51,273 bases of DNA from Planctomycetota bacterium (GTDB taxonomy: Bacteria > Planctomycetota > UBA1135): the NCBI GenBank assembly GCA_036396955.1, contig DASWJW010000075.1, positions 1 to 51,273 of the forward strand. The letters run 5' to 3'. A program made the translations under genes and the position numbers. This document shows positions 8,657 to 48,272 of the stretch, in pieces. How positions within the stretch are numbered: the stretch's first letter is position 1; each line of letters opens with the position of its first letter. The notes under the pieces were generated by a model, which had not been told where the DNA came from, ran no database searches, and was given only the letters and a program-made list of their open reading frames with translations.

Positions 8657-8675
8657 CGGAAGGCGGAACCGCCGT

Positions 8676-15669: not shown

Positions 15670-15778
15670 GTTCTTGGGGGGGAGGACGGGTCGGGGGATT
15701 GCGCGAGTCGAATTCGGCCTGAAGCGGTCCGCAGCGCCCCGCATTCTAGCCGATGGCAGGCAGGAAGCCCTGCCCGGG

Positions 15779-27864: not shown

Positions 27865-28359
27865 ATGCTCGTCCCTGCCCGAAACTCCCTGCTGGCACCC
27901 CTCGGCATCGCCGTCGCCTTGACGATGGTCGCGGTCCTCGCCGCCGTGCCGGCCCCGCGGTCGAGCGCGGAACAACACAAGATCGAGCAGCTTCGGGACC
28001 GCCTCGAGTTCCTGCGCAATGCGACCTTCCGCTTCCGGATGGACCATTTCGACGATCACGGCAGCCTGCCGCTCGGACTCTCCGGCCACGATCCCGAGCA
28101 ACAGCTCCTGGGCCGCACCGGCCTGGACGGGGCGCCGTTGACGGTCGCACCCGGCGACCGGCGCGGACTCGGACCCTACCTCGACAAGCTGCCGGTGAAC
28201 CCCTTCAACGGCCTTTCCAGCATCCGCTCGCTCCCGGGCGACCAGAAGACCGCCGACTTCCAAGGCAGCCACGGCTGGGTCTACTTGCCCGCCACCGCGC
28301 GCGTGCACCCGGACTTGCCGGGCTTCGACGCTTTCGGCCGCCCCTTCTCGGACTACTAG
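27865..28359 (+). CDS. membrane-anchored pseudopilin-like (T2SS GspG C-terminal-like) hypothetical protein
   Basis: The start is placed at MLVPARNSLLAPLGIAVALTMVAVLAAV, a single N-terminal hydrophobic helix. It is followed by LEFLRNATFRFRMDHFDDHGSLP...YLDKLPVNPFNG. The canonical GFTLIE prepilin motif is absent, so the function is uncertain. Confidence 0.45.
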   Translation: MLVPARNSLLAPLGIAVALTMVAVLAAVPAPRSSAEQHKIEQLRDRLEFLRNATFRFRMDHFDDHGSLPLGLSGHDPEQQLLGRTGLDGAPLTVAPGDRRGLGPYLDKLPVNPFNGLSSIRSLPGDQKTADFQGSHGWVYLPATARVHPDLPGFDAFGRPFSDY

Positions 28360-29408
28360 CGGCCGCCGCCGTCCGGTTCGTCGGCGCACTTCGCGCGGTT
28401 GAGCAACCGCTGTGCAGCGCCGGACTCGATCGCCTCGCGCGCCAGGCCGGACGCTTGGGCCAGATCGGGCGTGCGCCCCGCCAACCGCAGCAGCAAGGCC
28501 GCGCCGAGCAGCACCGAGCGCAAGGCCGGCCCGTCGACGCCGGTGAGGGCTTGCAGATTCGAGGTTTCGGCGGAAGCCGCCGGATCGCCGTCACCGAGGC
28601 AGGGCTCGGCAGGGCCGTCCAGGAACAGGTCGGAAGGGATCAGCCGCAGCGGGACGGTGCTGCCGTGCTCCAGGATCAGGCCGCGCGTCAGTCCGCAGAC
28701 CGCCGGATCGATCGAACCTTCGACGCCCTGCACCACCAGGCCCCGCTCGTGGCCGAGCGTGCGGATCGCGCCGCCCGCGGTGCCGAGCACCGGACCGTGG
28801 CCGGCCGCGACCACCAGCGAACAGCCGGCCGGCGCCAGCAACTTGGTGACCACGTCGGGCATGCCGCGCAAGCCGATCGACTCTTCGACGTTGAGCAGGC
28901 GCGCCCAGCCCGGGTCGGCGCGCGTCGGCGACCAGCAGGCCAGACCGTCGCGGCTCAGGCGCGCGTCCACCACGTCGGCGGTGGCGGGCATCGGCCCCAC
29001 CATCCGCTCCCACACGTCGCCGAGCGTGAGGCCCGCGCCGCGCGCGTGCGGCGCGGCCTGGATCAGCACCCGTACGCCACAGGCCGCGGCCGCCGCGGCG
29101 GACGCAACGCCCAGCGGCGGTCCGCGGCGCTTGCCGAGCCGGCCGGTCGCAACCACGATCAAGCTGTCCCCGACGGCCGGGAACAGGATTCGCGCCCGAG
29201 CGGCCTCGGCGGCTCCGGTGAGTTCGTCGGCGGTCGCACCCTTGGAGCGCACCAGCGCGAAGAACGCCGCAGCCTGCTCGCTGGTCCCGTCGCCCTCGAG
29301 CAGCGCCGCAAAGACCTCGCGTGCCTCTTCGCGCCCGAGATTGCGCTGCGCGCTCCCGGCGGGCACGTTGCCAATGCGGTCGATCGCAGCTCGAATCAAC
29401 CGGCTCAT
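28356..29408 (-). CDS. glycosyl transferase family 3 / TrpD-like (TrpD2/YbiB-like) protein
   Basis: 350 aa. The N-terminal helical region LGREEAREVFAALLEGDGTSEQAAAFFALVRSKGATADELTGAAEAAR is typical of the TrpD family. I did not see the TrpD catalytic GTGGD motif. The start lies 2 nt after the bcp stop. Confidence 0.65.
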   Translation of the reverse strand: MSRLIRAAIDRIGNVPAGSAQRNLGREEAREVFAALLEGDGTSEQAAAFFALVRSKGATADELTGAAEAARARILFPAVGDSLIVVATGRLGKRRGPPLGVASAAAAAACGVRVLIQAAPHARGAGLTLGDVWERMVGPMPATADVVDARLSRDGLACWSPTRADPGWARLLNVEESIGLRGMPDVVTKLLAPAGCSLVVAAGHGPVLGTAGGAIRTLGHERGLVVQGVEGSIDPAVCGLTRGLILEHGSTVPLRLIPSDLFLDGPAEPCLGDGDPAASAETSNLQALTGVDGPALRSVLLGAALLLRLAGRTPDLAQASGLAREAIESGAAQRLLNRAKCADEPDGGGR

Positions 29409-29410
29409 GG

Positions 29411-29896
29411 TCAGCGTGCCTCCAATTCCTTGTCGAGCGCCGCCAGGACCTTGGCGGCGTGGCCCTTCACGCGCGCGTTGTCGAAGACGCGCGCGACCTT
29501 GCCGCCCGGATCGATGAGCACGGTCGAGCGCACCAGCCCCAGATAACGGTGGCTGTTCTGCTGCTTGTCCCGCCACACGCCGTACTTGGCCGCCACCTTG
29601 CGATCGTGGTCGCAGACCAGCGGGTACGGCAGGCCGAGCTCGCGCGCGAAGTCCTCGTGGGAATCGATCTGGCACGCGCTGGCGCCCACCACGATCGCGC
29701 CGCGGCGCTTGAATTCCGCGTACAGGTCGCGGAAGTCGCAGGCTTCCGCGGTGCAGCCCGGCGTGCCGTCCTTGTTGTAGAAATACAGCACCACCCACCG
29801 GCCCCGCATCTCGGTGAGACGGAAGCGGTCGGTGCGGGTGGCGTCGAGGGTGAACGACGGTGCGCGCAGGCCTACGCGCAGGACGGGATTGGGCAA
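29411..29896 (-). CDS. bcp: thiol peroxidase / peroxiredoxin Bcp
   Basis: VGLRAPSFTL...GRWVVLYFYNKDGTPGCTAEACDFRD is the canonical Bcp/PrxQ active site. It has a TTG start (caa at 29894-29896). Confidence 0.9.
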   Translation of the reverse strand: MPNPVLRVGLRAPSFTLDATRTDRFRLTEMRGRWVVLYFYNKDGTPGCTAEACDFRDLYAEFKRRGAIVVGASACQIDSHEDFARELGLPYPLVCDHDRKVAAKYGVWRDKQQNSHRYLGLVRSTVLIDPGGKVARVFDNARVKGHAAKVLAALDKELEAR

Positions 29897-29940
29897 GGAC
29901 GTCGATCCGGTTGGCGGGCAGGAAAAGGAACGGCCTGAAG

Positions 29941-29966
29941 GGGAAGCCGATTATGCCTCGGCTCCC
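29941..29966 (-). terminator. possible hairpin/attenuator between the amidohydrolase array and bcp
   Basis: On the minus strand, GGGAGCCGA-ggcataa-TCGGCT(T)CCC forms a 9-bp stem with one bulge. A T-rich stretch (TTCCTTTTCC) begins about 12 nt downstream. The geometry is weak. Confidence 0.25.
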
Positions 29967-29988
29967 GATCCCCGCCAGTCCAAGCGCG

Positions 29989-31440
29989 TCAACCGCCGTT
30001 CGTGCCGCTGGAATTCTCCGGCGCGTCGACGTCGCGCGGCTCCGCCACGTCTTTTCCGTCATCCAACGCGGCGTCGGCGCCGCCCGGCGCGGCTGCACGC
30101 AGCGCGTCGAGCGCATCGCCAGACGGCGGCTCCTGCCGCGGACGGATGTGCGCGAAATACGGCGCCGCCTGCTTGTCGTAGGCCACGCGGCCGTTGACGA
30201 CCGCCCACTGCACGAAGGTACGGTAGTCGAAGAGGTCGCCGTCGGTGACGATCAGATCGGCGTCCTTGCCGGCTTCGATCGATCCGATCCGGTCCTCCAC
30301 GCCGAGAATGCGCGCGGCGTCCAGCGTGATCGCCTTGAGAGCGGCGGCTTGCGGCAGGCCGCCGCGGATCGCGAAAGCCGCTTCCATCGGCAGCGTGAGC
30401 AGGTCTCGTCCCGCAATGCCGCCTGTGCTGATCGACGAACTCCGCGGCTGCAGCGTAAAGCGGACGCCGGCATCGTGCAGGATCCGCGCGTTCTCGATCG
30501 ACCAGCCGTTGGGCCGGTTGAAGCGATCGTCGGCCCAGTTCTTCTGCCGCGGCGAGACCACCACCATCACCCCGGCACGGCCGAGCTGCGGGGCGACCGT
30601 CCAGGCTTCGATTCCGCTGCCGACCACCGCCCGCATCGGAAAGCGCTCGAGCAGGTCGACGACCGCCAGCAGGTCGCGCGCATTGCTGCCCTGCAGCTGG
30701 GCGGTCCGGCGGCCTTCGAGCAGTTCGACGAGGTCCTTGTTGACGCCCTTGTCGGAGGGATCCTTGGCATCCTTGTCGCCATCGGCGCGCGCGCGCTCGG
30801 CGGCGTGCCGCTGGCGCAGGAATTCGCGGGCCTTCTCCAGGTCCTCGACCAATTTCCGGCGCGAAGTCGGCGAGGTCGAGCTGTACGAGAGCTCGACGAA
30901 GGGGTTCTCGCGCAAGATGTGGCCTTCGAGCGTGCCGCGGGTCAGCTTGCCGACCACGCCGTTGTTGTGGACGGTGGTCAAGCCTCCCGACAGCGCCAGG
31001 TCGACGGTCAGCGAGAACGGATCGAAGCTGTCGGCCGGCTTCGGCGGCCGGCCGAGCAAGCCGCTGGCGTCGGTGGCGACCAGTCCCGGATAGACGTGCA
31101 TGCCCGTGGCGTCGATCACGCGCGCACCCGCGGGCACGCTCACTTGCGCACCGACGGCTTCGATGCGGCCCGCGCGCACCAGAACGGTGCCCTGGTGGAT
31201 CACGCCGTCGGTGACGGTGTGGATGCGGCCGCCGACGATCGCCAGCAAGTTTTCCACGACTTCCGGCTCGGCGGCTGCTTCCGCGACTTCCTCGATCTCC
31301 TCGGCGGCCTCGACGGCCGGCTCGGGTTGCGGATCCGGCCCGGGCGGCGGCTCTTGGGCCCACCCCGCCACGGCCGCGAACAGCAGGAACACGGCGCCGG
31401 CGAGCAGCCGCCAGAAGGTTTCTCGCGAAACGGGACTCAT
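29989..31440 (-). CDS. exported amidohydrolase-fold paralogue, array member 8 of 8 (HxH strand degenerate)
   Basis: The signal/TM segment is FWRLLAGAVFLLFAAVAGWA. The N-terminal beta-sandwich reads IVGGRIHTV...VRAGRIEAVG...VIDATGMHVYPGLVATDASG, which has no HxH. The C-terminal motif is GSIEAGKDADLIVTDGDLFD. Its ATG overlaps the member-7 stop (ATGA). Confidence 0.78.
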   Translation of the reverse strand: MSPVSRETFWRLLAGAVFLLFAAVAGWAQEPPPGPDPQPEPAVEAAEEIEEVAEAAAEPEVVENLLAIVGGRIHTVTDGVIHQGTVLVRAGRIEAVGAQVSVPAGARVIDATGMHVYPGLVATDASGLLGRPPKPADSFDPFSLTVDLALSGGLTTVHNNGVVGKLTRGTLEGHILRENPFVELSYSSTSPTSRRKLVEDLEKAREFLRQRHAAERARADGDKDAKDPSDKGVNKDLVELLEGRRTAQLQGSNARDLLAVVDLLERFPMRAVVGSGIEAWTVAPQLGRAGVMVVVSPRQKNWADDRFNRPNGWSIENARILHDAGVRFTLQPRSSSISTGGIAGRDLLTLPMEAAFAIRGGLPQAAALKAITLDAARILGVEDRIGSIEAGKDADLIVTDGDLFDYRTFVQWAVVNGRVAYDKQAAPYFAHIRPRQEPPSGDALDALRAAAPGGADAALDDGKDVAEPRDVDAPENSSGTNGG

Positions 31441-32861
31441 CGGCGCTCCTCTTTCTCTTCCTTGGCGCGGTCGTAGAGCACCTTGCCTTCGCGCAGCAGG
31501 AACTGGACCTCGGCAGTGGCATCCAGCGGATCGCCGTCGAGGATCACGAAAGTCGCCGGGCCGCCGGCGACGAGCGCCGCGACGTGCTCTTCCTGGCCGA
31601 TTGCGGCCGCGGCTTCGAGCGTGATCGCGCGCAAGGCGACTCCCCGGTCGAGGCCGCCGCGGACCAATTCGCTCACGCCGGCGCGCCAATCATGGAGATT
31701 CGTCTCGGCCGAACTCCGGCCGAACCCGCCCGGTCCGCGGGTCGCCGGCGGCAGCAGGACCAGCGGTACGCCGCGCGCCGCGAGTTCCGCCGGCAAGTTG
31801 AGGCGCGTGCGGGTGAACGGCAAAAAGGACAAGCGTGCGGGCAAGTAGACGCGCTCGCCGCGCTTCTCCAGCGCGTCGAGAACTTCGTGGAGGTTGGTGC
31901 TCGAGGAGTGCATCGCGACCAGTTCCCAGGGCAGTTCGCGCTCGCCGAGGACGTCGAGCAGGTGCAGCCAGGCGGCCGCGTCGTCCACCCAGATCTGGGC
32001 GACGCGCTGCTTGCGCACCCACTCCACCACCGGCACCAGGTCGGGCTCGATCGTGGGCGGCTCGAAGGTTTCGGGCGGGGCCTTCTCCTCGGCGTCCTTG
32101 CCCTTGCCACTGCTCTTGTCGTCGCCGCCTTCGTCCTTGCCGGGCTTGGGGGTCGCTTCGCCGCCTTCCGCCGGCTTCTTCTCGTCCTTGGCGGCCTTGT
32201 CGGCGGCGGCCTTCTTCTGCTTCTCGTCCCAGTCCTTGCGGGCCTTCTCCCAGTCGGTGCGCGCCTTCGCTTCCTTTTCGATCGCCTTGTCGGCGTCCTC
32301 GAGCGCCTTGCGCAGCAACTCCTTGGAGCGGTTGTTCGAATCGAGCTCCACCTTGAGGTGCAGATCGCGTACCCGAGCCCGCGGTTGCGGCGCCGCGGCG
32401 TCCGCGTCGAGCACCGAAGTCCGGCCGGGCAGGCCGCTGCCCGGCGGATCGACTCCGACGAGCAGCACGCCGTGCTCGCGCAAGGGTTGCAAGGCGTCGT
32501 CGTCGAGCCAGAGCGAGTCGGCGGCGAGGAAACGCGCGTTGCGGCCATTGCCGCGGCTGTCGCTTTGCAACCAATTGGCGTGCGTGAGCACGTAGGGCGG
32601 CATGAGGGTGGAGCCCCCGCCGCGCAGGTCGTGGACGACCGCGCCGGTCGGAACGACCACGGCCTTGCCCAAGGCCTCGATCACGCCCTGGCGCACCACG
32701 AGCGTGGCGCTCTCCATGGCCTCGCCGTCGAGGGTCTCGATGCGGTCGACGCGGTAGACCGTCGCACGCCCGACCGGAGCCGCGTCCGCCTTTGCGGCCG
32801 GCCCGGGATCCTGCGCCGGCGCCAGGACCGCCGGCAAGAGAGCCAGGAACGCGGGGTGCAT
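31437..32861 (-). CDS. exported amidohydrolase-fold paralogue, array member 7 of 8, with K/E/D-rich insert
   Basis: The signal peptide is MHPAFLALLPAVLAPAQ. The strand at the HxH position is LMPPYVLTHANW. A charged insert lies at nt 32052-32330 (KEAKARTDWEKARKDWDEKQKKAAADKAAKDEKK...). The C-terminal motif is AALVAGGPATFVILDGDPLD. Overlap with member 6 is 1 nt (TGATG). Confidence 0.75.
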   Translation of the reverse strand: MHPAFLALLPAVLAPAQDPGPAAKADAAPVGRATVYRVDRIETLDGEAMESATLVVRQGVIEALGKAVVVPTGAVVHDLRGGGSTLMPPYVLTHANWLQSDSRGNGRNARFLAADSLWLDDDALQPLREHGVLLVGVDPPGSGLPGRTSVLDADAAAPQPRARVRDLHLKVELDSNNRSKELLRKALEDADKAIEKEAKARTDWEKARKDWDEKQKKAAADKAAKDEKKPAEGGEATPKPGKDEGGDDKSSGKGKDAEEKAPPETFEPPTIEPDLVPVVEWVRKQRVAQIWVDDAAAWLHLLDVLGERELPWELVAMHSSSTNLHEVLDALEKRGERVYLPARLSFLPFTRTRLNLPAELAARGVPLVLLPPATRGPGGFGRSSAETNLHDWRAGVSELVRGGLDRGVALRAITLEAAAAIGQEEHVAALVAGGPATFVILDGDPLDATAEVQFLLREGKVLYDRAKEEKEERR

Positions 32862-34066
32862 CAGAACCGCCTCCCGTCGCGTTCGGCGTCGTAGACGAGT
32901 TCGCCGCGGATCCACGTGCGCGTCACGAACGAGCGCGGGTCGAGCGGAAATCCGGTCCAGGCCACCATGTCGGCTTCGAGGCCCGGTTCGAGCCGGCCGG
33001 AGACGTCGTCGCACTTGAGCGCGAAAGCGGCGTACGAGGTGATTCCCTTGAGCGCGCCTTCGGGGTCGTCGTGGCCGAGCCGCACGCCCATCGCCGCCTG
33101 GTAGCTCAACTCCTCCTGCGGGACCCCGCCCGAGTCGGTGTTGTAGCCGAGCACCAGGCCGTCGGGCACGGCTTCGGCCCAACCGGCGCCGCAGCCCTGG
33201 ATCCGCGAATTGGTGCGGTCGAAGAAGAACTGCCGCGGGCCGTTCATGACCGGCACCTTGAGCTCGGCGGCGAGCTTGGCGAGCTTGTAGCCGTCGAAAG
33301 TGCCGTGGTCGATGAACGGATCGAGTCCCAGCTCCTGTTTCTGCATGGTCAGCGTCATCAACACGACCTGATAGATCTGCGTGTGCACGCTGACTGGAAT
33401 GTCCTTGGCGAGGAGCGGCTCGAAATCGCGCCAGAAGTCGCTCCAGCCGATCTCGCCGGCGGCGTAGCCCTCGGCCCAGCCGAGCCCGCGCTGCAGCGTG
33501 TCGCGGGTGTTCCAGTTCATCAGCGAACGGCCGACGAAGGGGTACCAGCGCTCGGGGTTGCCCGACTGCGCGACCTTCAACGAACCAGGATTCATGACGA
33601 GCATGTCGTCCATGTCGTGGCCGGCCATCTTGATGAGCGCCCCGAATCCGCCGATGTTCGTGCCCGACCCCGGAATGAACAGCGCGGTCGTGACTCCGCC
33701 GGCCAGCGCGTCCTTGTTGGCGGGGTTGTCTGGGTCCACGCCGATCGCAACCCGCAGGTCCGGGTTGGTCGGGTGGACCATGTCGTTGATGTCGTTTCCG
33801 GAGTCGGCCGCGTGGTTGTGCGGCTCGTGCAGGCCGGGCGCGAGCCACTGCTCGCCCAGGTCGATCACGGGAGTTCCGGGCGGCAGGTCGATCTGGTCCG
33901 CGCGGCCGACCGCGGCGATGCGCTTGCCGCGCACCAGCACGATGGCGTTGTTCAGCACGCCAGCGTCGCCGGCCGTGAAGACCTTCGCGGCCTTGAGCGC
34001 GTAGACGTCTTCGCCGGCCGGTCCTTGGAACAGCATCGGCAGCATCAGGGCGAGGATCGGGATCAT
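32861..34066 (-). CDS. exported amidohydrolase, array member 6 of 8, the only member retaining HxH
   Basis: The N-terminus is MIPILALMLPMLFQGP. The strand LAPGLHEPHNHAADSG retains HxH. Later motifs are GGVTTALFIPGSGTNIGG, VSVHTQ, IDHGT, GYNTDSGG and the C-terminal GRLEPGLEADMVAWTGFPLDP. Its ATG overlaps the member-5 stop (ATGA). Confidence 0.82.
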   Translation of the reverse strand: MIPILALMLPMLFQGPAGEDVYALKAAKVFTAGDAGVLNNAIVLVRGKRIAAVGRADQIDLPPGTPVIDLGEQWLAPGLHEPHNHAADSGNDINDMVHPTNPDLRVAIGVDPDNPANKDALAGGVTTALFIPGSGTNIGGFGALIKMAGHDMDDMLVMNPGSLKVAQSGNPERWYPFVGRSLMNWNTRDTLQRGLGWAEGYAAGEIGWSDFWRDFEPLLAKDIPVSVHTQIYQVVLMTLTMQKQELGLDPFIDHGTFDGYKLAKLAAELKVPVMNGPRQFFFDRTNSRIQGCGAGWAEAVPDGLVLGYNTDSGGVPQEELSYQAAMGVRLGHDDPEGALKGITSYAAFALKCDDVSGRLEPGLEADMVAWTGFPLDPRSFVTRTWIRGELVYDAERDGRRF

Positions 34067-36984
34067 TCTTTCGGCACCTCCCGGCCGTTCACGAACACGC
34101 GTTCGACGCGGCTGCGCAGGTCGAAGGGCGGTCCGGAATGGACCACCACGTCGCCGGCGCGGCCGGGGGCGAGGAGACCGAGCTCCTCGTCGAGACCGAG
34201 CAGCGCCGCAGCGCCGCTCGTGAGGGCCTGGAGCGCCTGGTCCGCGCCCAGTCCGTAACGGGTGGCGAGCGCCAGTGCTTCGGGCAGGAAGCGGGCGCCG
34301 CCTTGCGCGCCGGAGCGGAACGCCACCGGAATGCCCGCCGCAAGCAATTCCGCGGCGGGCACGTGGTCGCGGCCGTCCACGCGCTCGATCACCGTCGAGC
34401 TGAGCACCACGCCGCGCGACTTCTCGCGGAGCAGGTCGGCGACCTGGAGCGCGTCCTCGCCGCCGAGGATCGCGACCGGCAGTTCGTGGGCCGCGAAAGC
34501 CTCGACCGCGACGCGGATTTCGTCCGCGCGTTCGGCCTCGACGATTGCGACCGCGCGGCCTTCGAACAGCGCACGTTGGCCTTCGAGATTCCAGTCGGTC
34601 TTGGGCGGCTGCGGGCCGTCGTCCTTGGCGCGGCGCTTGCGGGTGACCGCGACCTCGCCCCCGCCGGCGTCGACTTCGGTGCGGTGGGCCTCGAACTCGG
34701 TGCTGCCCAGGCCCGCCAGTTCCACGCGGACGTTCATCAAGTCGACGCCGACGAGTTCGCCGACGATCACGACCTTGCCGATCTCGGTGTCGACCTCGAC
34801 CCGCGCGATCTTGGTGGCGGCGTCCCAGGTGCCCTCGATCTCGAAGTTCTCGCCGGGAGCCTCCGGCGACGACAGCACGATCAGCAAGCGCGCGCCTTCG
34901 TGGCGCATCCGCGCCTGGACGCTCACCGGCTGGGGCAGGCGTTCGTCTTCGATCGTGGCTTCCCACATGCCGTTGATGGGATCGACCAACTTGACCTTGG
35001 CTTCTTCGACGATCTCCGCCTCGGCGACCTCGGCCACGGGCGCTTCCGGTTCCGTCGCGGTGCCCTGCGCCAAGCGCACGCGCAGCGCGGCTTCGGCATC
35101 GGCGCCGGCCTTGCCGCTCTCTTCGGCGTGCTTGACCTCCCACTCGGCGCGCTCCTTGCGGTACTTCGCCCAGGAATCGGCGTAGGACTTGCCGCGCTTC
35201 AGCGCCTCGGCGAGCTCGTTCGCGCGCGCGAGGTGGTCGCCGCCGCGCACCGAGAACCAGACCAGCTCGTGGTCCTGCACCCAAGCGCCGTCGCCGCCTT
35301 CGGCGGCGGTCTTGACCGCCGGCCCCCCCGCGCCGTTGGGCGGCTTGGCGGCCGGTTCCAGCGCCATGGTCGTGACGCCCGCGCGCGCGACCTGCGCCCA
35401 ATCGGAGCGGTACCGCGATCCGGAGGCCAGCAGTCCGAGCAGGGCCTTGGGATCGACCCGGCCGCCGCCGATGCCGAGGCGGCCGCCGGCGTCGATGAAC
35501 CCGGGAGTCAGGTGAGCTGCGGCGCCGGCGTCGACCAGCCGCGCGCCGCGCGGGTGCGGCACGCTGCGGCCCACGGCCTCGACGCGGCCGTTGCGCAACA
35601 GGACTTCCCAGCCGCCAGTCAGCGGGGCGCCCGATCCCGTCCACAGAGTGCCGGCGCGCACGATCACCGCATCGCTTGCGGGCGCGGCGTCGGGCCGCGG
35701 CTGTTCGCGCCAGACAAGCTCGCCTTCCACGTAGACGCGCTGGACCGAGCTCGCCGGATCGAGCGGAGCGCCGGACATCACCACGAAGTCGGCATCGCGG
35801 CCAGCCAGCAGGCTGCCGGCACGGTCGGCCACGCCGAGCAGCTGGGCGGGCACCCTCGTGACCGCCGCCAGCGCAGCGCCCTGGTCCAGACCGTCGCCGG
35901 CGGCCGCCGCGGCGGCTTCGAGCAGCATGGTCCACCGGCCGAAAGGGCCGACGGCCAGCGCCACCGGCAGGCCCTGCGCATGCAGCGCGGCGAGAGCCCC
36001 GGGTTCCGGGCGGACCCAGTCCTCGGGCAAGTCGGGAGTGCCGAGGAACAAGGGCACCTGGAAGATCACGCCGGCCCCCGCCTTGGCGAGCGCGGCGGCG
36101 AAGGGCGCGGCCTCGGCGGCGCCGTCGAGCAGCAGGCGCCGACCCCATTCAGCCGCGAGATCGATCGCCGCGCGCACTTCGCCGGCGTTCGCCGCGACCA
36201 CGCGCAAGGGCTCGCGGCCCTTGAGGAACTCCGCGAAGGCGGCTCGGTGGGCGTCGTAGCTGCCGTCCAGGTAACGGGTCAGGTACCAGCTCTCGCGCAA
36301 GGCCAACAGCGCGCCGGCGCGGGAACTCGGCGCTTGCGCCTTGAGCGGCTCGTACGGCTGCTGCGAGTTGGGCGGCAGCGGCATGCGGAAGAAGCGCGGG
36401 GCCCGCCCCCACACTCCGGGGTCCAGAGAGACCCGCAAGTCGCCTCGATCGACGAGCACGCGGTTGCCGCCCGCCGTCTTGACGACCGCGCCACGGCCGC
36501 CGACCAGGCGATCGCGCGACGGCGAGAGATAGAAGGTGGTGATGCCCTTGGAAAGGACGGAGTCGAGGTCGCGCCAGGCATCGAAATCATCGATCGCGCG
36601 CCGGTCCGCACCCAGCGAGGCCTCGCCTTGCGCGTTGCCCGCGCCGGCCACGGTGCTGTCGGCCGCGACCAGGCCGGGCATGATCTCGGCGGCGCCGAGT
36701 TCGATCACCGGCAGCAAGGGCGGCAAGTCCGCGGCCGAACGGGCGACGCCCTGCACCTTGCCGTCGCCGACCAGCAGCCACGCGTCGACGAGCGGCGCCG
36801 CTGCGCCCGGCTCCTGCCAGATGCGGGCGGCGTGATAGGCGCGTTCGACCTTCACTTCGGCCTGGCGCAGCGCGTCGGCGGCCGCCGTGCGGTCCGGGGG
36901 GTCGCCGCCGCGCGAACCGATCAAGGCCGGCGCGCCGATGCCGACGGCGAGCGCCGCGGCTCCGATCCAGAGAATGCGGCTCAC
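34063..36984 (-). CDS. exported double-module amidohydrolase-fold paralogue, array member 5 of 8
   Basis: The GTG start (VSRILWIGAAALAVGIGAPALIG, a TM/signal segment) overlaps the member-4 stop (GTGA). There are two complete modules: IMPGLVAADSTV...GSLLAGRDADFVVMSGAPLDP and LTPGFIDAGGRL...GLLAPGRAGDVVVHSGPPFD. An insert of about 210 aa lies at nt 34585-35220. Confidence 0.78.
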   Translation of the reverse strand: MSRILWIGAAALAVGIGAPALIGSRGGDPPDRTAAADALRQAEVKVERAYHAARIWQEPGAAAPLVDAWLLVGDGKVQGVARSAADLPPLLPVIELGAAEIMPGLVAADSTVAGAGNAQGEASLGADRRAIDDFDAWRDLDSVLSKGITTFYLSPSRDRLVGGRGAVVKTAGGNRVLVDRGDLRVSLDPGVWGRAPRFFRMPLPPNSQQPYEPLKAQAPSSRAGALLALRESWYLTRYLDGSYDAHRAAFAEFLKGREPLRVVAANAGEVRAAIDLAAEWGRRLLLDGAAEAAPFAAALAKAGAGVIFQVPLFLGTPDLPEDWVRPEPGALAALHAQGLPVALAVGPFGRWTMLLEAAAAAAGDGLDQGAALAAVTRVPAQLLGVADRAGSLLAGRDADFVVMSGAPLDPASSVQRVYVEGELVWREQPRPDAAPASDAVIVRAGTLWTGSGAPLTGGWEVLLRNGRVEAVGRSVPHPRGARLVDAGAAAHLTPGFIDAGGRLGIGGGRVDPKALLGLLASGSRYRSDWAQVARAGVTTMALEPAAKPPNGAGGPAVKTAAEGGDGAWVQDHELVWFSVRGGDHLARANELAEALKRGKSYADSWAKYRKERAEWEVKHAEESGKAGADAEAALRVRLAQGTATEPEAPVAEVAEAEIVEEAKVKLVDPINGMWEATIEDERLPQPVSVQARMRHEGARLLIVLSSPEAPGENFEIEGTWDAATKIARVEVDTEIGKVVIVGELVGVDLMNVRVELAGLGSTEFEAHRTEVDAGGGEVAVTRKRRAKDDGPQPPKTDWNLEGQRALFEGRAVAIVEAERADEIRVAVEAFAAHELPVAILGGEDALQVADLLREKSRGVVLSSTVIERVDGRDHVPAAELLAAGIPVAFRSGAQGGARFLPEALALATRYGLGADQALQALTSGAAALLGLDEELGLLAPGRAGDVVVHSGPPFDLRSRVERVFVNGREVPKE

Positions 36985-38381
36985 TGCAGCGTCCCCTCCA
37001 GCAGGCGCTGCAAGCGCTCGTCGGTGGAACGCTCGTAGATGCGTTCGCCGCGCAGCCAGACTTCGAGGACCTTGTGGTTGGGATCGAGCGGGTCGCCGCT
37101 CAGCACCGCGAAGGTGCCGTCGGCGCCGGCGGCGATTCCGCCGAGCGAGGCGGCCAGCTTCCAGGCGGCGGCCGGGTTGCTCGTCACGGCCGCGAGCGCC
37201 GTGGCGCGCGGCACGCCTTCGCGTACGCAGACCGCGCCGAGGTAGGCCAGGCGGTCGGCGTCCATCAAGCCGCCTTGCGGCGTGAGACTGAACGCGATGC
37301 CTGCATCGGCGAGCACCTTGGGGACGAAGGTCTTGATCTCCTTCCAGGTGACCGGGTCGCGCTCGACGTGCCAGAGATCGCCGGCCAGGACCACCGGCCG
37401 GCCGGCGGCGGCCAGCACCGCGCTCGCCTTCCAGGCGTCGCCGTCGATCAGGAACACGCCGCGCGCGAGCAGGCCGTGCGTCGACAACCAGTCGTTCGCG
37501 TGGACCACGTCGGTCGCCGTCGGCGCCCAGACCCAGAGGTCGCGGTCGCCGTTGAAGATCCGCACCAGGCTGCGCTGCGGTTCGGGCAGGTCGGCCTCGG
37601 CGATCTCGCCCTTGCCGGGAAAGTCGGCGCCGAAGCGCACGAAGCCCGGATTCCGGCTCGCGCCGTCGAGCGGCGGCGGATCGTTGGCGGGGTCCTCGCC
37701 CGCGCGTTCGGCGTCGGCGAGCGCGGCGGCGCCGTCGACCAGTTCCTGCCCTTTGCGGCGCAGGAAGTCGAGCAGCCCGGCCTCGGCTTCGCGCAGCTCG
37801 GCCATCTGCGCGCTGCGGCTGTTCCCGCTGCGCGGCGCGAAGGACATCACGTGCCCCAACGGAGCGCGCAAGGTCATGTCGCCCACGGTCATGCCGTGCG
37901 GCGCCACGACCCGGCCCAGGCCGGCGATCACGGTGCTGGTGCCCTGCATCACGCCGATCGCGACCACGCCGTTGCGCCGCTCTTCTTCGAAGTAGAGCTG
38001 CGAGGGGTCGAGCGAGTCGCGGACGTCGAGGAAGGGGCCCACCGGCACGTTCTCGTTGGCGCGGTCGAGACCGCTGGTGGTGTACGCCACCTTGAAGCCG
38101 GAGAAGACCACGGCGTCGGGATGCTCGTGGAGCACCACGTCGAAGGGAATCTCGAGATCCGCCCCGCCGACGGCGGTGATCTTGCCGCCGCGGACGAGGA
38201 CGGTGCCGTTCTCGATCTCCCGGCCGTCGGCGAGGATCACGCGGCCGGCGCGCACGGCGACGTCGCCGGACTGCAAGGCCGCGGCGGAGGGCGCGAGCGC
38301 GGCGAGCAGCGCCAGCACGAGCGGCACCGGGCCGGAGCAAAGGTGGCGAAGCGGACGAGCGGGAAGGTGCGGAACGGACAT
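36981..38381 (-). CDS. exported amidohydrolase-fold paralogue, array member 4 of 8 (HxH strand degenerate)
   Basis: The signal is PVPLVLALLAALAPSAAA. The N-terminal region reads VRAGRVILADGREIENGTVLVRGGKITAVG. The HxH position is VFSGFKVAYTTS. The C-terminal motif is GGIAAGADGTFAVLSGDPLDP. Overlap with member 3 is 1 nt (TGATG). Confidence 0.72.
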   Translation of the reverse strand: MSVPHLPARPLRHLCSGPVPLVLALLAALAPSAAALQSGDVAVRAGRVILADGREIENGTVLVRGGKITAVGGADLEIPFDVVLHEHPDAVVFSGFKVAYTTSGLDRANENVPVGPFLDVRDSLDPSQLYFEEERRNGVVAIGVMQGTSTVIAGLGRVVAPHGMTVGDMTLRAPLGHVMSFAPRSGNSRSAQMAELREAEAGLLDFLRRKGQELVDGAAALADAERAGEDPANDPPPLDGASRNPGFVRFGADFPGKGEIAEADLPEPQRSLVRIFNGDRDLWVWAPTATDVVHANDWLSTHGLLARGVFLIDGDAWKASAVLAAAGRPVVLAGDLWHVERDPVTWKEIKTFVPKVLADAGIAFSLTPQGGLMDADRLAYLGAVCVREGVPRATALAAVTSNPAAAWKLAASLGGIAAGADGTFAVLSGDPLDPNHKVLEVWLRGERIYERSTDERLQRLLEGTLQ

Positions 38382-39859
38382 CAGAAGGTGACCTGGGGCC
38401 GGGCGTCGAAAGCGATCACCCCGTCCACCAGGACGAGGATCGGGCGGGAATCGGCCGCCAACGGCGGGCCGGACCAGAGGACGAGGTCGGCGTCCTTGCC
38501 GACCTCGATCGAGCCGAGGCGTTCCTGCACGCCGCAAAGGCGCGCCGCCTCGAGGGTGACCGCGGGCAGCGCCAGCGCGGGCTCCAGCCCCCACTCCACG
38601 GCGCGGCGGGCCTGGTGGATCAAACTGGCTTCGGCGCCGAAACGGCCATGCGCTTCGGCGGCGCCGAGCACGGTCGGAACCTCCGTCGCGGCGAGCAGCG
38701 CGGGCAGCGCTGGCGTCGCGAGGCCCGCGGTGGCGCGCCGGCCGCGGAACAGCCCCTGCGCGTCGGCGCTTCCGGGAACCACGATCGACAGCAAGTCGAG
38801 CGCGAAGTCGCTGACGTGCACGTGGCCGGTGGTGTCCGGCGCTCGGTAGCGTTCGGGGACTTGCGCGTCTTCGTCTTCGCAGCAGAGTTGCGGCGGCCGC
38901 ACGCCGGTGCGCCACTCGGCGAGGTTCAAGGGCCGCACCACGGCCCGGCGTGGATCGTCGAACAGCGGCCCGGTGACCACTTGCGCGCGCATCTTCTGCA
39001 GCACCGGGATGCAGCGGTAGGCCTCGGTGCCTTCCTCGATCACGAACGGCGGCAGCTGCAGTTCTTCCTGCAGCCGCTTGAGCGCCTGAAGGTCCTGGCT
39101 CTTCCGCGCCTGGATCCGCAACGGCAGCTCGCCGTCGAGCGCGGCCACCAGCGCGTCGAGGCCGGGGTCGGAGACTCCGGCGCCGGCAGCGCGCGCGGCG
39201 CGGTAGCGCGCGGCGCGGTGGAATTCGCTGCGGATCATCCGCTCCACGCCCATCCGCGTCGTCGGCCGCCGGTAGTTCATGTCGTCGGGCGAGCCGCCCC
39301 ACGGCGGCCGGTTGCCCGAACTCGGTTCGCTGCCCATCGTCACCTTGAGCGCGGCGTCTTCGACGATGACGCGCGCCGCACTGCCGGGATCGGCGAAGAG
39401 GTCGGCGGACTCGCCGCCGTGGGTTTTCACCACCGCGCCGATGCCGCCGAAGACGTTCAGCGAATCGGGGCTCAGGTAGGCCCCCGTCACGCCCTGCACG
39501 ACCGCGGTCCGGAATTCCGCCGAATCGAGTTCGGCGGTGCGTGCGACCCGCATGGAGGGCGTGGACTCGCGGGTCTGGTCGAGGGTCGCGGCGCCTACTC
39601 CCATGTAGGAGTAGGCGTCGAACAGGCCGGGACTCAATTCCGCCCCCGCGACGTGCACGTGAGCGCCGGCGGCGGAACCCCCGGCCACCACGCTGCGGAT
39701 CAGGCCGTCGGCGACGACCACCACGGCGTTCTCGAGCACGCGGCCGTCGCCGACGTGCAGGCGGTCGACGGCGATCACCAGGTCTTCGCCCGCGGCGCCG
39801 CCCGAAGGCACGGCCTGCCCGAGGGCGAGCGGAAGCAGCAAGGAGAGGGCGCAGATCAT
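38381..39859 (-). CDS. exported amidohydrolase-fold paralogue, array member 3 of 8 (HxH strand degenerate)
   Basis: The signal is MICALSLLLPLALGQA. The HxH position is LSPGLFDAYSYM. The C-terminal motif is GSIEVGKDADLVLWSGPPL. Its ATG overlaps the member-2 stop (ATGA). Confidence 0.78.
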   Translation of the reverse strand: MICALSLLLPLALGQAVPSGGAAGEDLVIAVDRLHVGDGRVLENAVVVVADGLIRSVVAGGSAAGAHVHVAGAELSPGLFDAYSYMGVGAATLDQTRESTPSMRVARTAELDSAEFRTAVVQGVTGAYLSPDSLNVFGGIGAVVKTHGGESADLFADPGSAARVIVEDAALKVTMGSEPSSGNRPPWGGSPDDMNYRRPTTRMGVERMIRSEFHRAARYRAARAAGAGVSDPGLDALVAALDGELPLRIQARKSQDLQALKRLQEELQLPPFVIEEGTEAYRCIPVLQKMRAQVVTGPLFDDPRRAVVRPLNLAEWRTGVRPPQLCCEDEDAQVPERYRAPDTTGHVHVSDFALDLLSIVVPGSADAQGLFRGRRATAGLATPALPALLAATEVPTVLGAAEAHGRFGAEASLIHQARRAVEWGLEPALALPAVTLEAARLCGVQERLGSIEVGKDADLVLWSGPPLAADSRPILVLVDGVIAFDARPQVTF

Positions 39860-40959
39860 TCGTCTTCGTCCACGGGAGCGGTCCAGACGGTGCGGCCGGC
39901 GAGCATCACCGCTTGGACGCGCGCGGCGCCGTCGAGGGGATGTCCGCTCCACAGCACCAGGTCGGCGACCGCGCCGGGAGCGATGCGGCCGCGGTCGTCC
40001 AGGCCCGCGATCGCGGCGGCATTGCCGGTGACGGCGGCCATGGCGGCGGCCGGATCGCCCGTGGCGCGCGAGTAGGCCATGGCGGTGGTGCGCAGGCCGT
40101 CGAGGACTTCGCCGCCGCGCCCGCTCCGCGTGCCGAAAGCGACGCGCACGCCGGCGCCGTGCAGGCGCTTCCAAGTCTCGAGCAGGCGCGCCGACCAGTC
40201 GCCGTCGTGGATCGCGGGGAGCACGACGAGCGCTCCGGCCAGTTCGCGGCCGTAGCCGCCGACGTCGCCCCAGGCGAGGTAGACGGCGTCGAAGCCCTGC
40301 TCGCGCGCCCGCTGGGTGGCCGCACGGGCGCCTTCCGCGGAATCGAGGTAGACCGCGACCTTGCGGCCGCGCCAGACGTCCGGGGCACGGGCGATGGCGG
40401 CGTCGAGGTCCTCGAGCGCTCCGGCCACCGCGGTCGGCCCGATCACCGGATCGGCGAAGCCGCTCGCGACCAGCGAGACGACGGCGCGCGCGCGCGGCGC
40501 GAGCATCCGGTCGACCGCCGCGCCGGTGCGCACTACGCTCGAATCTCCGGCCAGCGCCCGCGCCGGATCGGGGACCACGTGCACGGCCGTGATGCCGCGC
40601 TCCAAGGCCGCCTGCCAGTAGCGGTGGCGCAGGTCGAGCGCGTCGGCGGCGCGCAGACCGGCGTTGTTGCGGAACGCGCGTTCGGCGATCTCGCCCTGGA
40701 CCGCCACTCCGGCGGCCGCATCGATCATGCCGGGCGCGAGCACGCCGTGCAGGCGCACGACCTTGACTCCCGCCGGCTGGGGAACGTCTGCGCCCACCGC
40801 GAAGATGCGGTCGCCGCGCAACAGGATCTTGCCGTCGGGGATGACCGCTCCGTCCGGACCGATCACGCCGTCGGCGTGCAGGATCATGGCTTCTTGCGCG
40901 CGCGCGGAAGCCGCGCAGGCCAGCAGAGCGACACCGAAGGGCAGCAGGCTGCGGATCAT
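39856..40959 (-). CDS. exported amidohydrolase-fold paralogue, array member 2 of 8 (HxH strand degenerate)
   Basis: The signal is MIRSLLPFGVALLACAASARAQ. The HxH position is LAPGMIDAAAGV. The C-terminal motif is GRIAPGAVADLVLWSGHPLDG. Its ATG overlaps the member-1 stop (ATGA). Confidence 0.78.
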   Translation of the reverse strand: MIRSLLPFGVALLACAASARAQEAMILHADGVIGPDGAVIPDGKILLRGDRIFAVGADVPQPAGVKVVRLHGVLAPGMIDAAAGVAVQGEIAERAFRNNAGLRAADALDLRHRYWQAALERGITAVHVVPDPARALAGDSSVVRTGAAVDRMLAPRARAVVSLVASGFADPVIGPTAVAGALEDLDAAIARAPDVWRGRKVAVYLDSAEGARAATQRAREQGFDAVYLAWGDVGGYGRELAGALVVLPAIHDGDWSARLLETWKRLHGAGVRVAFGTRSGRGGEVLDGLRTTAMAYSRATGDPAAAMAAVTGNAAAIAGLDDRGRIAPGAVADLVLWSGHPLDGAARVQAVMLAGRTVWTAPVDEDE

Positions 40960-42323
40960 CGCCGTCCTCCCGGCAGCGCCTCGAAGGGCGCGGAAGCGTC
41001 GAACGGGCTGGCGCCCTGGAACAGCACCAATTCGGCGCGGGCGCCGCGCGCGATCCGGCCGTGGCTGCCCTCGAGCCCGAGCAGGCGCGCGGGGATCTCG
41101 GTGAGGCTGGCCCAGACCGCCGCGGGATCGGCGCCAGCGGCGATCAATTCGCCGGCGCGGAGCAGGAGCAGGCCCTGGGCGCCGTCCGAGCCCCCGCTGG
41201 CCAGCGCGACCTCGACGCCGGCGTCGGTCAGGCGCCGGTAGCGGACCGCCAGGGACCGTTCTGCGGCAGCCCGCGAACCGTGCTGCGGCGCGACCGCCAG
41301 CACCACCGCGATTTCGGCGGCGGCGAGTTCGCGCGCCAGCAGGTCGGCTTCTTCCGCGCCGACGGCGATCACGCGGTCCAGTTCGAAACGCTCCTTGATC
41401 GCAATGAGTTCGCGCAGCTCGTGTGCTTGCCCGAGGTGCACGCGCAGCGGCAGTTCGCCGTCGAGCACGCGCAGCAGCAGCTCGCGTTCGGCGTTGCGCG
41501 AAGGCTCCTTGGGACGCTCGGGCCGCTTGGGAGGACCGGATTCCGTTTTGCCGTTCCCGTCCTTCTTGTCGCCTTCGTCCTGCCCGGGCGCGCCGCCGCC
41601 GTCCTTCTTCTCCTTGTCGCCCTTCGCCTTCTTGGCGACGTATTCGTCGAGCTTCTTGGCGTATTCCTCGAGGTCCTTCGCGTGCTTTTCGAGCTTCTCT
41701 TCCCAGTCTTCCCGCGCTTCGCGATAGGTCTCGGCCTGCACCAGGGCCTCGGTCAAGGCGCCGGCGTCGGTGAGCGCGGCCACGCCTTCGCCGCGGCCGC
41801 TGCCGGTCGCCATGTCCACTCCTTCGAGTCCCGCGGGAGTGGGCAGGTCGTTGGCCGAGAAGACCACCGTCGTGCCGAGACCGCGCTGCAGTCCGCTGCC
41901 GCGCGCGGGCAAGTACGCCGCCGCAACGCCGGCGGCGCGCGCCGCCGCGACGCGCGCGGCGAGTTGCGGATCGGCGCCGGCGAGATCGACCGGAAGGCCG
42001 TCGCGCACTTGCTCGTCCCCCGGCCCGCCGTTTCCCGCGAGCAGGTCGCCAGGCAGCAGGCCGGACCACGCGTCGACGAAGCCGGCGGCGAGCGTGCCGG
42101 CGAGTTCGACCGTGCGGCCGCCGCGCGGCGCGCGCGCGGACACGGCCTGGATCTCGCCGTCGCGCACCGTCACGTACGCCGGTGCGATGCGGGTTTCCGC
42201 ATCGAGCCAGGCCGCGTCGGCCTTGTAGACCACCACGCCGCCGGCCTGCCCGGATACGACGGGGGTGAGGAGAAGCAGGGCCAGGGCCCCGGCGAGGGCC
42301 CCACGAAGGGAGAGGGGGTTCAA
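40956..42323 (-). CDS. exported amidohydrolase-fold paralogue, array member 1 of 8, with K/E/D-rich insert
   Basis: A TTG start gives MNPLSLRGALAGALALLLLTPVVSGQ. The HxH position is LAAGFVDAWSGL. A charged insert lies at nt 41496-41738 (REDWEEKLEKHAKDLEEYAKKLDEYVAKKAKGDKEKKDGGG...). The C-terminal motif is GRIARGARAELVLFQGASPFD. Confidence 0.72.
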   Translation of the reverse strand: MNPLSLRGALAGALALLLLTPVVSGQAGGVVVYKADAAWLDAETRIAPAYVTVRDGEIQAVSARAPRGGRTVELAGTLAAGFVDAWSGLLPGDLLAGNGGPGDEQVRDGLPVDLAGADPQLAARVAAARAAGVAAAYLPARGSGLQRGLGTTVVFSANDLPTPAGLEGVDMATGSGRGEGVAALTDAGALTEALVQAETYREAREDWEEKLEKHAKDLEEYAKKLDEYVAKKAKGDKEKKDGGGAPGQDEGDKKDGNGKTESGPPKRPERPKEPSRNAERELLLRVLDGELPLRVHLGQAHELRELIAIKERFELDRVIAVGAEEADLLARELAAAEIAVVLAVAPQHGSRAAAERSLAVRYRRLTDAGVEVALASGGSDGAQGLLLLRAGELIAAGADPAAVWASLTEIPARLLGLEGSHGRIARGARAELVLFQGASPFDASAPFEALPGGRR

Positions 42324-42464
42324 GACTGGCGGTGGCGACGCTCCGAAGCCGGGCGTCGCCGGGCCATCCTACGAATTTGGACAATGGAATTAGTAGGGGT
42401 TTTTCCGCCCCAAGCCCGGTGGCAGGCAGGGGATCGGGGGGTCGTACTTCTTAGACTCCGGGCC

Positions 42465-43307
42465 ATGACTGCATCGGAGCCGGCCCCCCCTCCCGCCCCG
42501 CCGGTGGTCCACCCGACCGCCGTGGTGATGCCTGGCGCCGAACTCGGCGCCGGAGTCGAAGTCGGCCCCTACGCGGTGCTCGAGCCCGGCGTCGAGGTCG
42601 GCGCCGGTTCGCGCATCGCCGCCCACGCCCAGCTGCTGGGCCGCACCGTGCTGGGTGCGCGCTGCGTGGTCGGCCCGGGGACCGTGCTGGGCGGCGTCCC
42701 CCAGGACGCCAAGTACGCCGGCGAGCGGACCCTGGTGCGGATCGGCGCCGATTGCGTCTTCCACGAGCATGCCACCGTGCACCGCGCCACCGGCGAGGGC
42801 GGCGAGACCGTGCTCGGCGCCGGGGTGCGGCTGATGGTCGGCGCCCACGTCGGCCACAACTGCACGGTGGGAGACGGCGCGATCCTGGTCAACGGAGCCG
42901 CGCTCGGCGGCCACGTGGTGGTCGGCGCGGGAGCGTTCCTGTCGCAGACCTCCGGCGTGCATCAATTCGGCCGGGTCGGCCGGCTCACGCTGGTCGGCGG
43001 CGCCACCATGCTCACGCGCGACGCGCCGCCGTTTTCCGTGGTCGTCGGCAGCTACCCGCCGCGCTGGCGGGCGCCGAATACCATCGGCCTGCGCCGCGCG
43101 GGCTTCCTCCCCGCCCAGCGCGACGCGATCCGCACTGCGCTCCGCGCGCTGTTCGCGCCCGGCGCCAACCCGCGCCAGGTCGCCGAGCAGTACGCGAACC
43201 ACGCGGATCCGAACCTCGCCGAACTCGCGGCCTTCGTGCTCGCCGGCCGCCGCCAGCTGGTCGCCCCGCCGGCGCGCGATCCGGCGGACGAAGCCGACGC
43301 CGACTGA
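42465..43307 (+). CDS. lpxA: acyl-ACP--UDP-N-acetylglucosamine O-acyltransferase
   Basis: Left-handed beta-helix hexapeptide repeats: VHPTAVVMPGAELGAGVEVGPYAVLEPGVEVGAGSRI... Further LpxA motifs are GGVPQDAKYAGE, VGHNCTVGDGAILVNGAALGGHV, VHQFGRVG, DAPPF and NTIGLRRAGF. Confidence 0.9.
   Translation: MTASEPAPPPAPPVVHPTAVVMPGAELGAGVEVGPYAVLEPGVEVGAGSRIAAHAQLLGRTVLGARCVVGPGTVLGGVPQDAKYAGERTLVRIGADCVFHEHATVHRATGEGGETVLGAGVRLMVGAHVGHNCTVGDGAILVNGAALGGHVVVGAGAFLSQTSGVHQFGRVGRLTLVGGATMLTRDAPPFSVVVGSYPPRWRAPNTIGLRRAGFLPAQRDAIRTALRALFAPGANPRQVAEQYANHADPNLAELAAFVLAGRRQLVAPPARDPADEADAD

Positions 43308-47270: not shown

Positions 47271-48272
<1,002 letters not shown>

Follow-up and report, generated by a model that had tools for sequence, protein, structure and literature searches.

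An operon of eight overlapping genes in Planctomycetota encodes one canonical amidohydrolase and eight predicted pseudoenzyme modules

What use could a bacterium have for eight related amidohydrolase-fold proteins encoded end to end, without a single base between their genes? The question is raised by a stretch of 51,273 nucleotides from a Planctomycetota bacterium of the UBA1135 lineage (GenBank assembly GCA_036396955.1, contig DASWJW010000075.1, positions 1 to 51,273), referred to here as the window. Eight consecutive minus-strand genes, g1 to g8, occupy positions 29989-42323, and their products comprise nine amidohydrolase modules. Because only g6 has the six residues that hold the catalytic metals in this superfamily, we read the array as encoding one canonical enzyme and eight pseudoenzyme modules.

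The G+C content is about 70% throughout the window, with no compositional break at the array. As a consequence of the high G+C content, mechanical lists of open reading frames (ORFs) are crowded by spurious frames, and the genes were resolved by the G+C content at third positions in the three phases (GC3) together with stop-to-stop frames. The array consists of g1 (40956-42323, 455 aa, with a TTG start), g2 (39856-40959, 367 aa), g3 (38381-39859, 492 aa), g4 (36981-38381, 466 aa), g5 (34063-36984, 973 aa), g6 (32861-34066, 401 aa), g7 (31437-32861, 474 aa) and g8 (29989-31440, 483 aa), all on the minus strand and all with intact frames. Read 5' to 3' on that strand, the junctions from g1/g2 to g7/g8 are ATGA, ATGA, TGATG, GTGA, ATGA, TGATG and ATGA, so that consecutive genes share 4 nt or 1 nt at every stop/start junction. 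Eight coupled genes without gaps, and exactly these seven junctions, had been described in a first-pass annotation of the same DNA, and the ORF re-analysis returned them unchanged. Overlaps of this kind would be expected to give roughly equal synthesis of each chain.

All eight products match the Pfam families Amidohydro_1 (PF01979) or Amidohydro_3 (PF07969), mostly through their C-terminal ~100 residues. The matches of g2, g3, g4, g5, g6 and g8 lie above the Pfam gathering cut-offs. Those of g1 (20.9 bits to Amidohydro_1, cut-off 25) and g7 (24.4 bits, cut-off 29.7) lie below them, and both proteins are clearly placed in the family by BLAST against their paralogues and by a module hidden Markov model (HMM), which was itself built from the family. 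The g5 product is a natural fusion of two modules, the N-terminal one spanning residues ~45-428 and the C-terminal one residues ~437-973, with a linker of ~10 residues; Pfam, the module HMM and an AlphaFold2 model all separate the two. The claims of the first-pass annotation that every product has the amidohydrolase architecture and that the fifth contains two modules are thus borne out, and the profile searches pointed to no unrelated family.

The g5 protein was the only one modelled whole (from 27 orthologues), with a mean predicted local distance difference test score (pLDDT) of 81 and a predicted template modelling score (pTM) of 0.47, and the model shows the (beta/alpha)8 barrel and the composite beta-sandwich built from N- and C-terminal parts. 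The best Foldseek match of its modules is PDB entry 3OOQ (template modelling score, TM, 0.80; E 2e-24), followed by imidazolonepropionases, COG1228 prolidases, the Cc2672 carboxypeptidase and isoaspartyl dipeptidase. The same entry, 3OOQ, is the best PDB sequence match of g6 (E 4e-40). The 3OOQ-like subfamily has no curated definition, and placement in it is a matter of similarity and not of formal membership. Among the NCBIfam equivalogs (HutI, PhnM, NagA, AllB and others) no array protein reaches any cut-off, the best score being the 55.9 bits of g6 to the Caulobacter-type Xaa-Pro dipeptidase NF051886, whose cut-off is 500. By these profiles the array proteins belong to the amidohydrolase superfamily but to no named enzyme family. 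An identity as a defence system was also considered and rejected, as none of the PADLOC anti-phage profiles matches any of the eight proteins.

Amidohydrolases of subtype I bind two metals through an HxH motif after strand 1, a carboxylated Lys on strand 4, a His on strand 5, a His on strand 6 and an Asp on strand 8 (PMC11342369). The ligand columns were located by aligning the nine modules with orthologues from two divergent genomes and were then read in sets of 33-42 orthologues. In g6 the ligands are H83, H85, K164, H228, H254 and D311, each of them invariant in 42 of 42 orthologues. The modules of g1, g2, g3, g4, g7 and g8 and both modules of g5 hold the six-ligand set in none of the genomes examined; the six positions read W/G/D/H/V/G in g1, Y/Y/K/Q/E/H in g3 and D/S/E/Q/G/G in g8, and A/G/V is also among the combinations seen in the eight. 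By the canonical criterion g6, the sole module with complete catalytic metal ligands, is predicted to be the only subtype-I enzyme of the array and the other eight modules to be pseudoenzymes, g2 being so classed in the window's clade and g4 being the best conserved of the dead modules. The first-pass annotation had missed that eight of the nine modules lack the metal ligands and are pseudoenzymes; the PG-[LFM]-[IV]-D strand to which it drew attention is present, and the HxH expected to follow it is missing in 8 of the 9 modules. A set of nine independent active hydrolases is rejected, as the metal ligands are kept only in g6.

It is conceivable that the modules called dead here are enzymes with a non-canonical site, either mononuclear or metal-free, in which case the operon would encode a multi-enzyme pathway or a group of hydrolases with different specificities. 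The orthologues of g3 have conserved residues, Y/F, K, Q, E and H, where the ligands once were, so that K, E and H persist at three of these sites, the orthologues of g4 and g7 often retain one His plus a Lys, and in one metagenome-assembled genome (MAG) from a separate lineage, L055, the g2 orthologue still has the HxH, the Lys and the Asp of the M-alpha site without the two M-beta His. We nevertheless regard this alternative as very unlikely. No dead module keeps even HxH and Asp in the window's clade, the former ligand residues differ among orthologues in most of the eight dead orthogroups, and the Pfam matches are mostly confined to the C-terminal structural region.

The intensity of selection was compared between dead and live modules using the ratio of nonsynonymous to synonymous substitutions (dN/dS), estimated by the Nei-Gojobori method for the least saturated genome pair (L013 and L028, dS 0.6-1.0). 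The ratio is 0.03-0.07 for each of the eight genes, and the value for the catalytic g6 is 0.05, similar to those of the dead ones. Because the ratios are equally low, the dead modules seem to be constrained as tightly as g6, that is, they are by this estimate under the same strong purifying selection as the live module and are not decaying.

Orthologues of g6 form more than 100 clusters at 45-65% identity, the named ones nearly all from Planctomycetota MAGs, and those of g5 form about 50 clusters. A scan with a g5 profile, restricted to one genome per species, yielded 51 loci, over which synteny was evaluated by tblastn with all eight array proteins and five flanking proteins. The approximately 30 loci that are long enough to judge share the order lpxA(-) / g1 g2 g3 g4 g5 g6 [g6'] g7 g8 bcp trpD2 ... 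topoisomerase, where g6' is an additional gene described below. They come from uncultured, mostly marine or aquatic Planctomycetota (UBA1135, UBA7888, NORP40, and ALOHA, Arabian Sea, Antarctic and Tara MAGs). The order g1-g8 is also kept in Phycisphaerales (L003 and L047-L051, including the complete genome CP159477), with unrelated flanks, and in the third lineage represented by L055, where the array is flanked by glycosyltransferase/Wzy genes, g5 has 786 aa, and g7 and g8 form one protein of 887 aa. The g2 orthologue of L055 mentioned above (722-1894) has the appearance of a stage on the way to losing the metal site. Within the window's clade the g4/g5 and g5/g6 junctions overlap by 4 or 1 nt in nearly all loci.

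Positional orthologues are 40-60% identical, and 27-46% identical to those of Phycisphaerales, compared with ~25% identity among paralogues within the array. In a neighbour-joining tree of 45 modules, drawn without support values, each of the nine positions forms one clade that spans the three lineages, and it follows that the nine-fold duplication predates the split of those lineages. The arrangement is accordingly not peculiar to one strain, a doubt that the first-pass annotation had raised, and each position constitutes a monophyletic orthogroup. A tandem set of paralogues with lost active sites could in principle consist of decaying copies, and the array would then be a strain-specific pile-up of duplicated amidohydrolase genes turning into pseudogenes. 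To this possibility we attach virtually no credence. All reading frames are intact, dN/dS lies between 0.03 and 0.07, the ~25% identity of the paralogues implies ancient duplications, and orthologues exist at every position in more than 30 species-level genomes of three lineages; together with the monophyly of the orthogroups, the three-lineage synteny and the low dN/dS rule it out.

In 29 loci an extra gene of ~1.2 kb, g6', is present between g6 and g7. Its product of ~400 aa is ~36% identical to g6 and retains all six ligands in 27 of the 29. The window lacks g6', as do L016, L039 and L043, and in the window g6 directly overlaps g7 at position 32861. The count of nine modules given by the first-pass annotation is therefore right for the window and misses the tenth, catalytic module of most relatives; judged by its ligands, the usual array is composed of eight dead and two live modules.

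Dead copies next to a live one are also found outside the array. A phmmer search with g4 against 1.8 billion representative sequences gave 860 matches below 1e-10, among which are many two-module (820-1000 aa) and three-module (1260-1480 aa) proteins, and a query with the g7-g8 fusion adds further multi-module proteins, with Armatimonadaceae, Isosphaeraceae, Gemmataceae and Aureliella among the named sources. The layout of the three-module proteins is no-HxH / HxH / no-HxH in 68 of 78 cases; H, H, K, H and D are present in the central module of 72-77 of the 78 and are not kept in the flanking modules. In a Vicinamibacteria genome (L053, 9242-13334) three separate genes in tandem show the same pseudo-catalytic-pseudo arrangement, and a catalytic-pseudo pair is found on a Steroidobacteraceae contig (L054, 2541-5779). 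In P0259, a protein of three modules, the best-matching profiles are successively those of g1, g2 and g3, and the HxH is in the middle. The two- and three-module proteins (P0216-P0428) make up a widespread family and are annotated merely as "amidohydrolase family protein". From these sequences the planctomycete array appears to be the most elaborate case of a wider pattern, in which an amidohydrolase of the 3OOQ type stands beside dead copies of itself.

We also considered whether the nine modules arose from a triad of the pseudo-catalytic-pseudo type that was triplicated, and do not claim such an origin. When the nine orthogroup profiles are compared by hhalign with those of the triad positions A, C and B, the series A-C-B does not clearly recur; suggestive pairings are limited to g1 with A, g6 with C and g8 with B, and the scores differ little.

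Every product of the array starts with a hydrophobic N-terminal segment, the best 10-residue Kyte-Doolittle mean being 2.3-3.0 within the first ~35 residues, and the orthologues retain such segments. The signal- or transmembrane-like starts reported in the first-pass annotation thus recur in the hydropathy analysis and extend to the orthologues. From these segments we infer that the array products are exported through Sec and are probably periplasmic. The signal-like segments are very short (e.g., those encoded at 34010-34066 and 32805-32861 of the window). Many of the orthologue segments end in P-Q-[D/E] (LPQE, APQD, FPQAE, MPQEG), which may represent a clade-specific motif of the cleavage site.

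Several of the dead modules carry sequence that the family does not require. Where 3OOQ has a short helical insertion, g1 (residues ~195-285), g7 (residues ~175-275) and the C-terminal module of g5 contain long K/E-rich helical or low-complexity inserts, and g8 has an acidic N-terminal linker and an acidic C-terminal tail. In the C-terminal module of g5 the AlphaFold2 model predicts a helix of 57 residues (residues 584-640; 35065-35235, minus strand) and, at residues ~672-771 (34672-34971, minus strand), an eight-stranded up-and-down beta-barrel with a pLDDT of 74. The barrel insert has no sequence match in Pfam or the PDB and contains an invariant N-G-[LM]-W motif. Its top Foldseek matches are lipocalins and fatty-acid-binding proteins, and they are weak (E ~2e-3, TM 0.45-0.5). 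The calycin group, to which lipocalins belong, is recognized by an eight-stranded up-and-down barrel with GxW on the first strand. If the predicted barrel is lipocalin-like, it hints, weakly, at a hydrophobic acyl group in the substrate.

Since 8 of 9 modules are non-catalytic, g1, g5, g7 and g8 contain long charged helices and K/E-rich or acidic stretches of low complexity, and all products are apparently exported, the array could be thought to build mainly a structural scaffold or lattice of amidohydrolase-fold bricks in the periplasm or at the surface, the activity of g6 being incidental or serving maintenance. We find this highly improbable. The g6 ligands would hardly be expected to remain invariant in all 42 orthologues, nor g6' to be catalytic in 27 of the 29 genomes that have it, and fused relatives with three modules have almost always kept the catalytic one. 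Because the catalytic modules are so well retained, the enzyme looks like the purpose of the assembly.

These results lead us to lean, on balance, towards the view that the products of the operon make up a single hetero-oligomeric amidohydrolase, exported and probably periplasmic, in which one or two subunits are active and eight pseudo-subunits serve as scaffold or for binding. Four observations point in this direction. Modules are fused in several combinations, the two of g5 everywhere, g7 with g8 inside a syntenic array, and pseudo-HxH-pseudo in 68 of 78 three-module proteins, and by Rosetta-stone logic fused modules work together. Selective constraint is equal on dead and live modules. The solved relatives are dihedral homo-oligomers: ochratoxinase is a D4 homo-octamer, and 3OOQ, an entry of 10 chains, appears as a dihedral complex in a benchmark of assemblies with 10-30 chains, from which we take its symmetry to be D5. 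Finally, the collapsin response mediator proteins (CRMPs) provide a precedent of inactive amidohydrolase-fold proteins that form hetero-oligomers.

According to this hetero-oligomeric scheme, each chain would be exported through Sec, and once in the periplasm the modules that lost their metal ligands long ago would assemble around the live g6, and g6' where it is present, using interfaces like those of the dihedral homo-oligomers of their relatives (D5 in 3OOQ, D4 in ochratoxinase). The dead modules might then act as scaffold, gate or substrate-binding subunits, with the remodelled dead pockets, the long charged helices of g1, g7 and the C-terminal module of g5, and the lipocalin-like barrel of g5 as candidate binding elements. 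The g6 subunit would hydrolyse an amide bond. Because the nearest characterised enzymes are COG1228/M38 prolidases, an Arg/Lys carboxypeptidase, N-acyl-amino-acid acylases and ochratoxinase, its product would most likely be an amino acid released from a peptide or from an N-acyl, possibly lipidic, amino acid.

Several observations weigh against the hetero-oligomer. The assembly is deduced from genes and homologues, and the pTM of 0.47 means that the packing of the two g5 modules against each other is not confidently predicted. Module numbers vary, with 9 in the window, 10 in most relatives and 3 or 2 elsewhere, so no single stoichiometry fits. The signals were judged by hydropathy only, several segments lack a basic n-region, and that of g5 could be a signal anchor. 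The pocket of g3, with its K, E and H, leaves a non-canonical activity conceivable. The score of g6 lies far below every NCBIfam equivalog cut-off. A single clade supplies much of the synteny, and its members also share the order of the wider neighbourhood (acs, lpxA ... topoisomerase). The hetero-oligomeric machine proposed in the first-pass annotation gains strength from the dead yet conserved modules and from the fusions, and is still putative.

Some of the same observations would suit a looser arrangement, in which the operon supplies co-regulated but independent exported proteins, the enzyme g6 and seven non-catalytic ligand-binding proteins, which form no stable complex. Each protein has its own signal-like N-terminus, conserved residues specific to the orthogroup occupy the former ligand positions, module numbers differ between lineages, and the low pTM of the g5 model (0.47) can be read in the same way. 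Independent binders, however, need neither a fixed order nor stop/start overlaps conserved across three lineages; the recurrent fusions (g5, g7-g8 and the 68 of 78 pseudo-catalytic-pseudo proteins) argue that the modules work in contact, and the solved relatives are obligate dihedral oligomers. We consider this arrangement unlikely.

A more specific form of the hetero-oligomer can also be imagined, in which the nine or ten modules fill single positions of a dihedral, D5-like periplasmic hetero-decamer of the 3OOQ type. The ancestral homo-oligomer would have been replaced position by position by paralogues, eight of which were re-purposed for gating or ligand capture. The count in most relatives is exactly ten (eight dead modules, g6 and g6'), whereas neither the nine-module arrays nor the three-module proteins agree with a decamer, which we regard as distinctly unlikely.

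Downstream of g8, on the same strand, lie a bcp-type peroxiredoxin gene (29411-29896, Pfam AhpC-TSA), 92 nt from the array, and a TrpD-family gene (TrpD2/YbiB-like, 28356-29417), which overlaps the end of bcp. The first-pass annotation had named both genes, and Pfam agrees with it. A weak terminator-like hairpin is present at 29949-29931 (minus strand) in the 92-nt gap between g8 and bcp (29897-29988), and bcp may be co-transcribed with the array. The two genes adjoin the array only in the window's clade and not in Phycisphaerales or L055. On the other side a divergent lpxA-like acyltransferase gene (42528-43307, plus strand), kept beside the array in the window's clade, is followed by an acetyl-CoA synthetase gene, and the intergenic region 42324-42527 between g1 and the lpxA-like gene presumably contains the promoter of the array. 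A scan for sigma-70-like sequences, to which planctomycete promoter types did not belong, showed no consensus in this region, and inside the array it showed no such promoters and no terminator-like sites on the coding strand. The first-pass annotation had counted independent internal promoters as a point that would speak against a single operon; that none was seen is weak evidence, as the planctomycete types lay outside the scan.

The remainder of the window includes a compact cyanophycin cluster of overlapping minus-strand genes (10851-15849), unrelated to the eight-gene array. It consists of a cyanophycin synthetase (10851-13643), a Peptidase_S51 cyanophycinase (13640-14461) and a conventional amidohydrolase (14458 to ~15849, start uncertain) that is probably an isoaspartyl dipeptidase. 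Elsewhere there are a WD40-repeat protein of 1101 aa (2140-5445, plus strand), two sulfatases (7292-8728, minus; 21419-22864, plus), a sulfotransferase (23941-24663, minus) and a MoxR AAA+ ATPase (47271-48272, plus), a content typical of Planctomycetota. Three ORFs with high GC3 have no Pfam match (27865-28359 and 45644-47086, plus; 6029-7135, minus), and the first of them (164 aa) is also called in a second assembly of the region (L001).

The array appears to be real, ancient, conserved and undescribed. Neither the array, nor the triad proteins, nor the function of 3OOQ was found described in the literature searched, in line with the first-pass annotation, to which no characterised system of this layout was known. 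The nine-module array occurs in dozens of marine and aquatic Planctomycetota, including Phycisphaerales, and is not the curiosity of one genome; smaller triads, fused or tandem, occur in Acidobacteriota, Gammaproteobacteria, Armatimonadota and planctomycete families of the cultured type. Automatic annotation counts nine hydrolases where one exists, which matters for metabolic inference from metagenomes. If the products do assemble, they would form the largest set of paralogous pseudoenzyme subunits serving one bacterial active site, as far as we have found, and they would illustrate clearly, in a natural case, how the subunits of a homo-oligomeric enzyme diverge and divide the labour within a hetero-oligomer. 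Such a system would offer a tractable bacterial model for research on the evolution of pseudoenzymes and protein complexes.

The closest known relative is 3OOQ, a structural genomics entry from Thermotoga maritima. It heads the sequence matches of g6 and the structural matches of both g5 modules, and it shares with the array proteins the helical insertion between the barrel halves. It differs in being a homo-oligomer of one catalytically complete chain, from another phylum and with no assigned function, whereas the array comprises nine paralogous modules that have diverged from one another; eight lack the metal ligands, and all carry putative export signals. The enzymes of COG1228 and MEROPS family M38 (Sgx9260 prolidases, the Cc2672 Arg/Lys carboxypeptidase, long-chain aminoacylases and ochratoxinase) have the fold and the subtype-I site of g6. 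None of them has been reported with dead paralogous partners or in an operon of this kind, and g6 is not a member of NF051886.

The nearest precedent for how the array might work is offered by the CRMPs (DPYSL proteins), amidohydrolase-fold proteins that have lost catalysis, act through oligomerisation and prefer heterotetramers of paralogues. They are eukaryotic, cytosolic and derived from dihydropyrimidinase, and their complexes contain no catalytic partner. In some bacterial aspartate transcarbamoylase complexes an inactive dihydroorotase-like subunit, PyrC', has likewise lost catalysis on the same fold and acts via oligomerisation, but it pairs with an unrelated enzyme. Neither the CRMPs nor PyrC' form an operon of eight paralogues, neither is exported, and both belong to a different subfamily.

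A more distant analogy is that of the 20S proteasome of eukaryotes, which has 7+7 paralogues and activity in three beta types only, and of CCT/TRiC, likewise a ring diversified by paralogues. There too the positions of a homo-oligomer are taken by distinct paralogues, most of which lose catalysis, although fold and function are unrelated and any assembly of the array products is putative; if the hetero-decamer were true, the array would be a prokaryotic counterpart of these rings. The array resembles the CRMP and dihydroorotase-like partnerships in its presumed way of working, and these rings by analogy only, and belongs to none of them. Partnerships of an amidohydrolase-fold enzyme with pseudoenzymes are known as such, and what is unprecedented here is their extension to eight dead modules per active site in a coupled and apparently exported operon.

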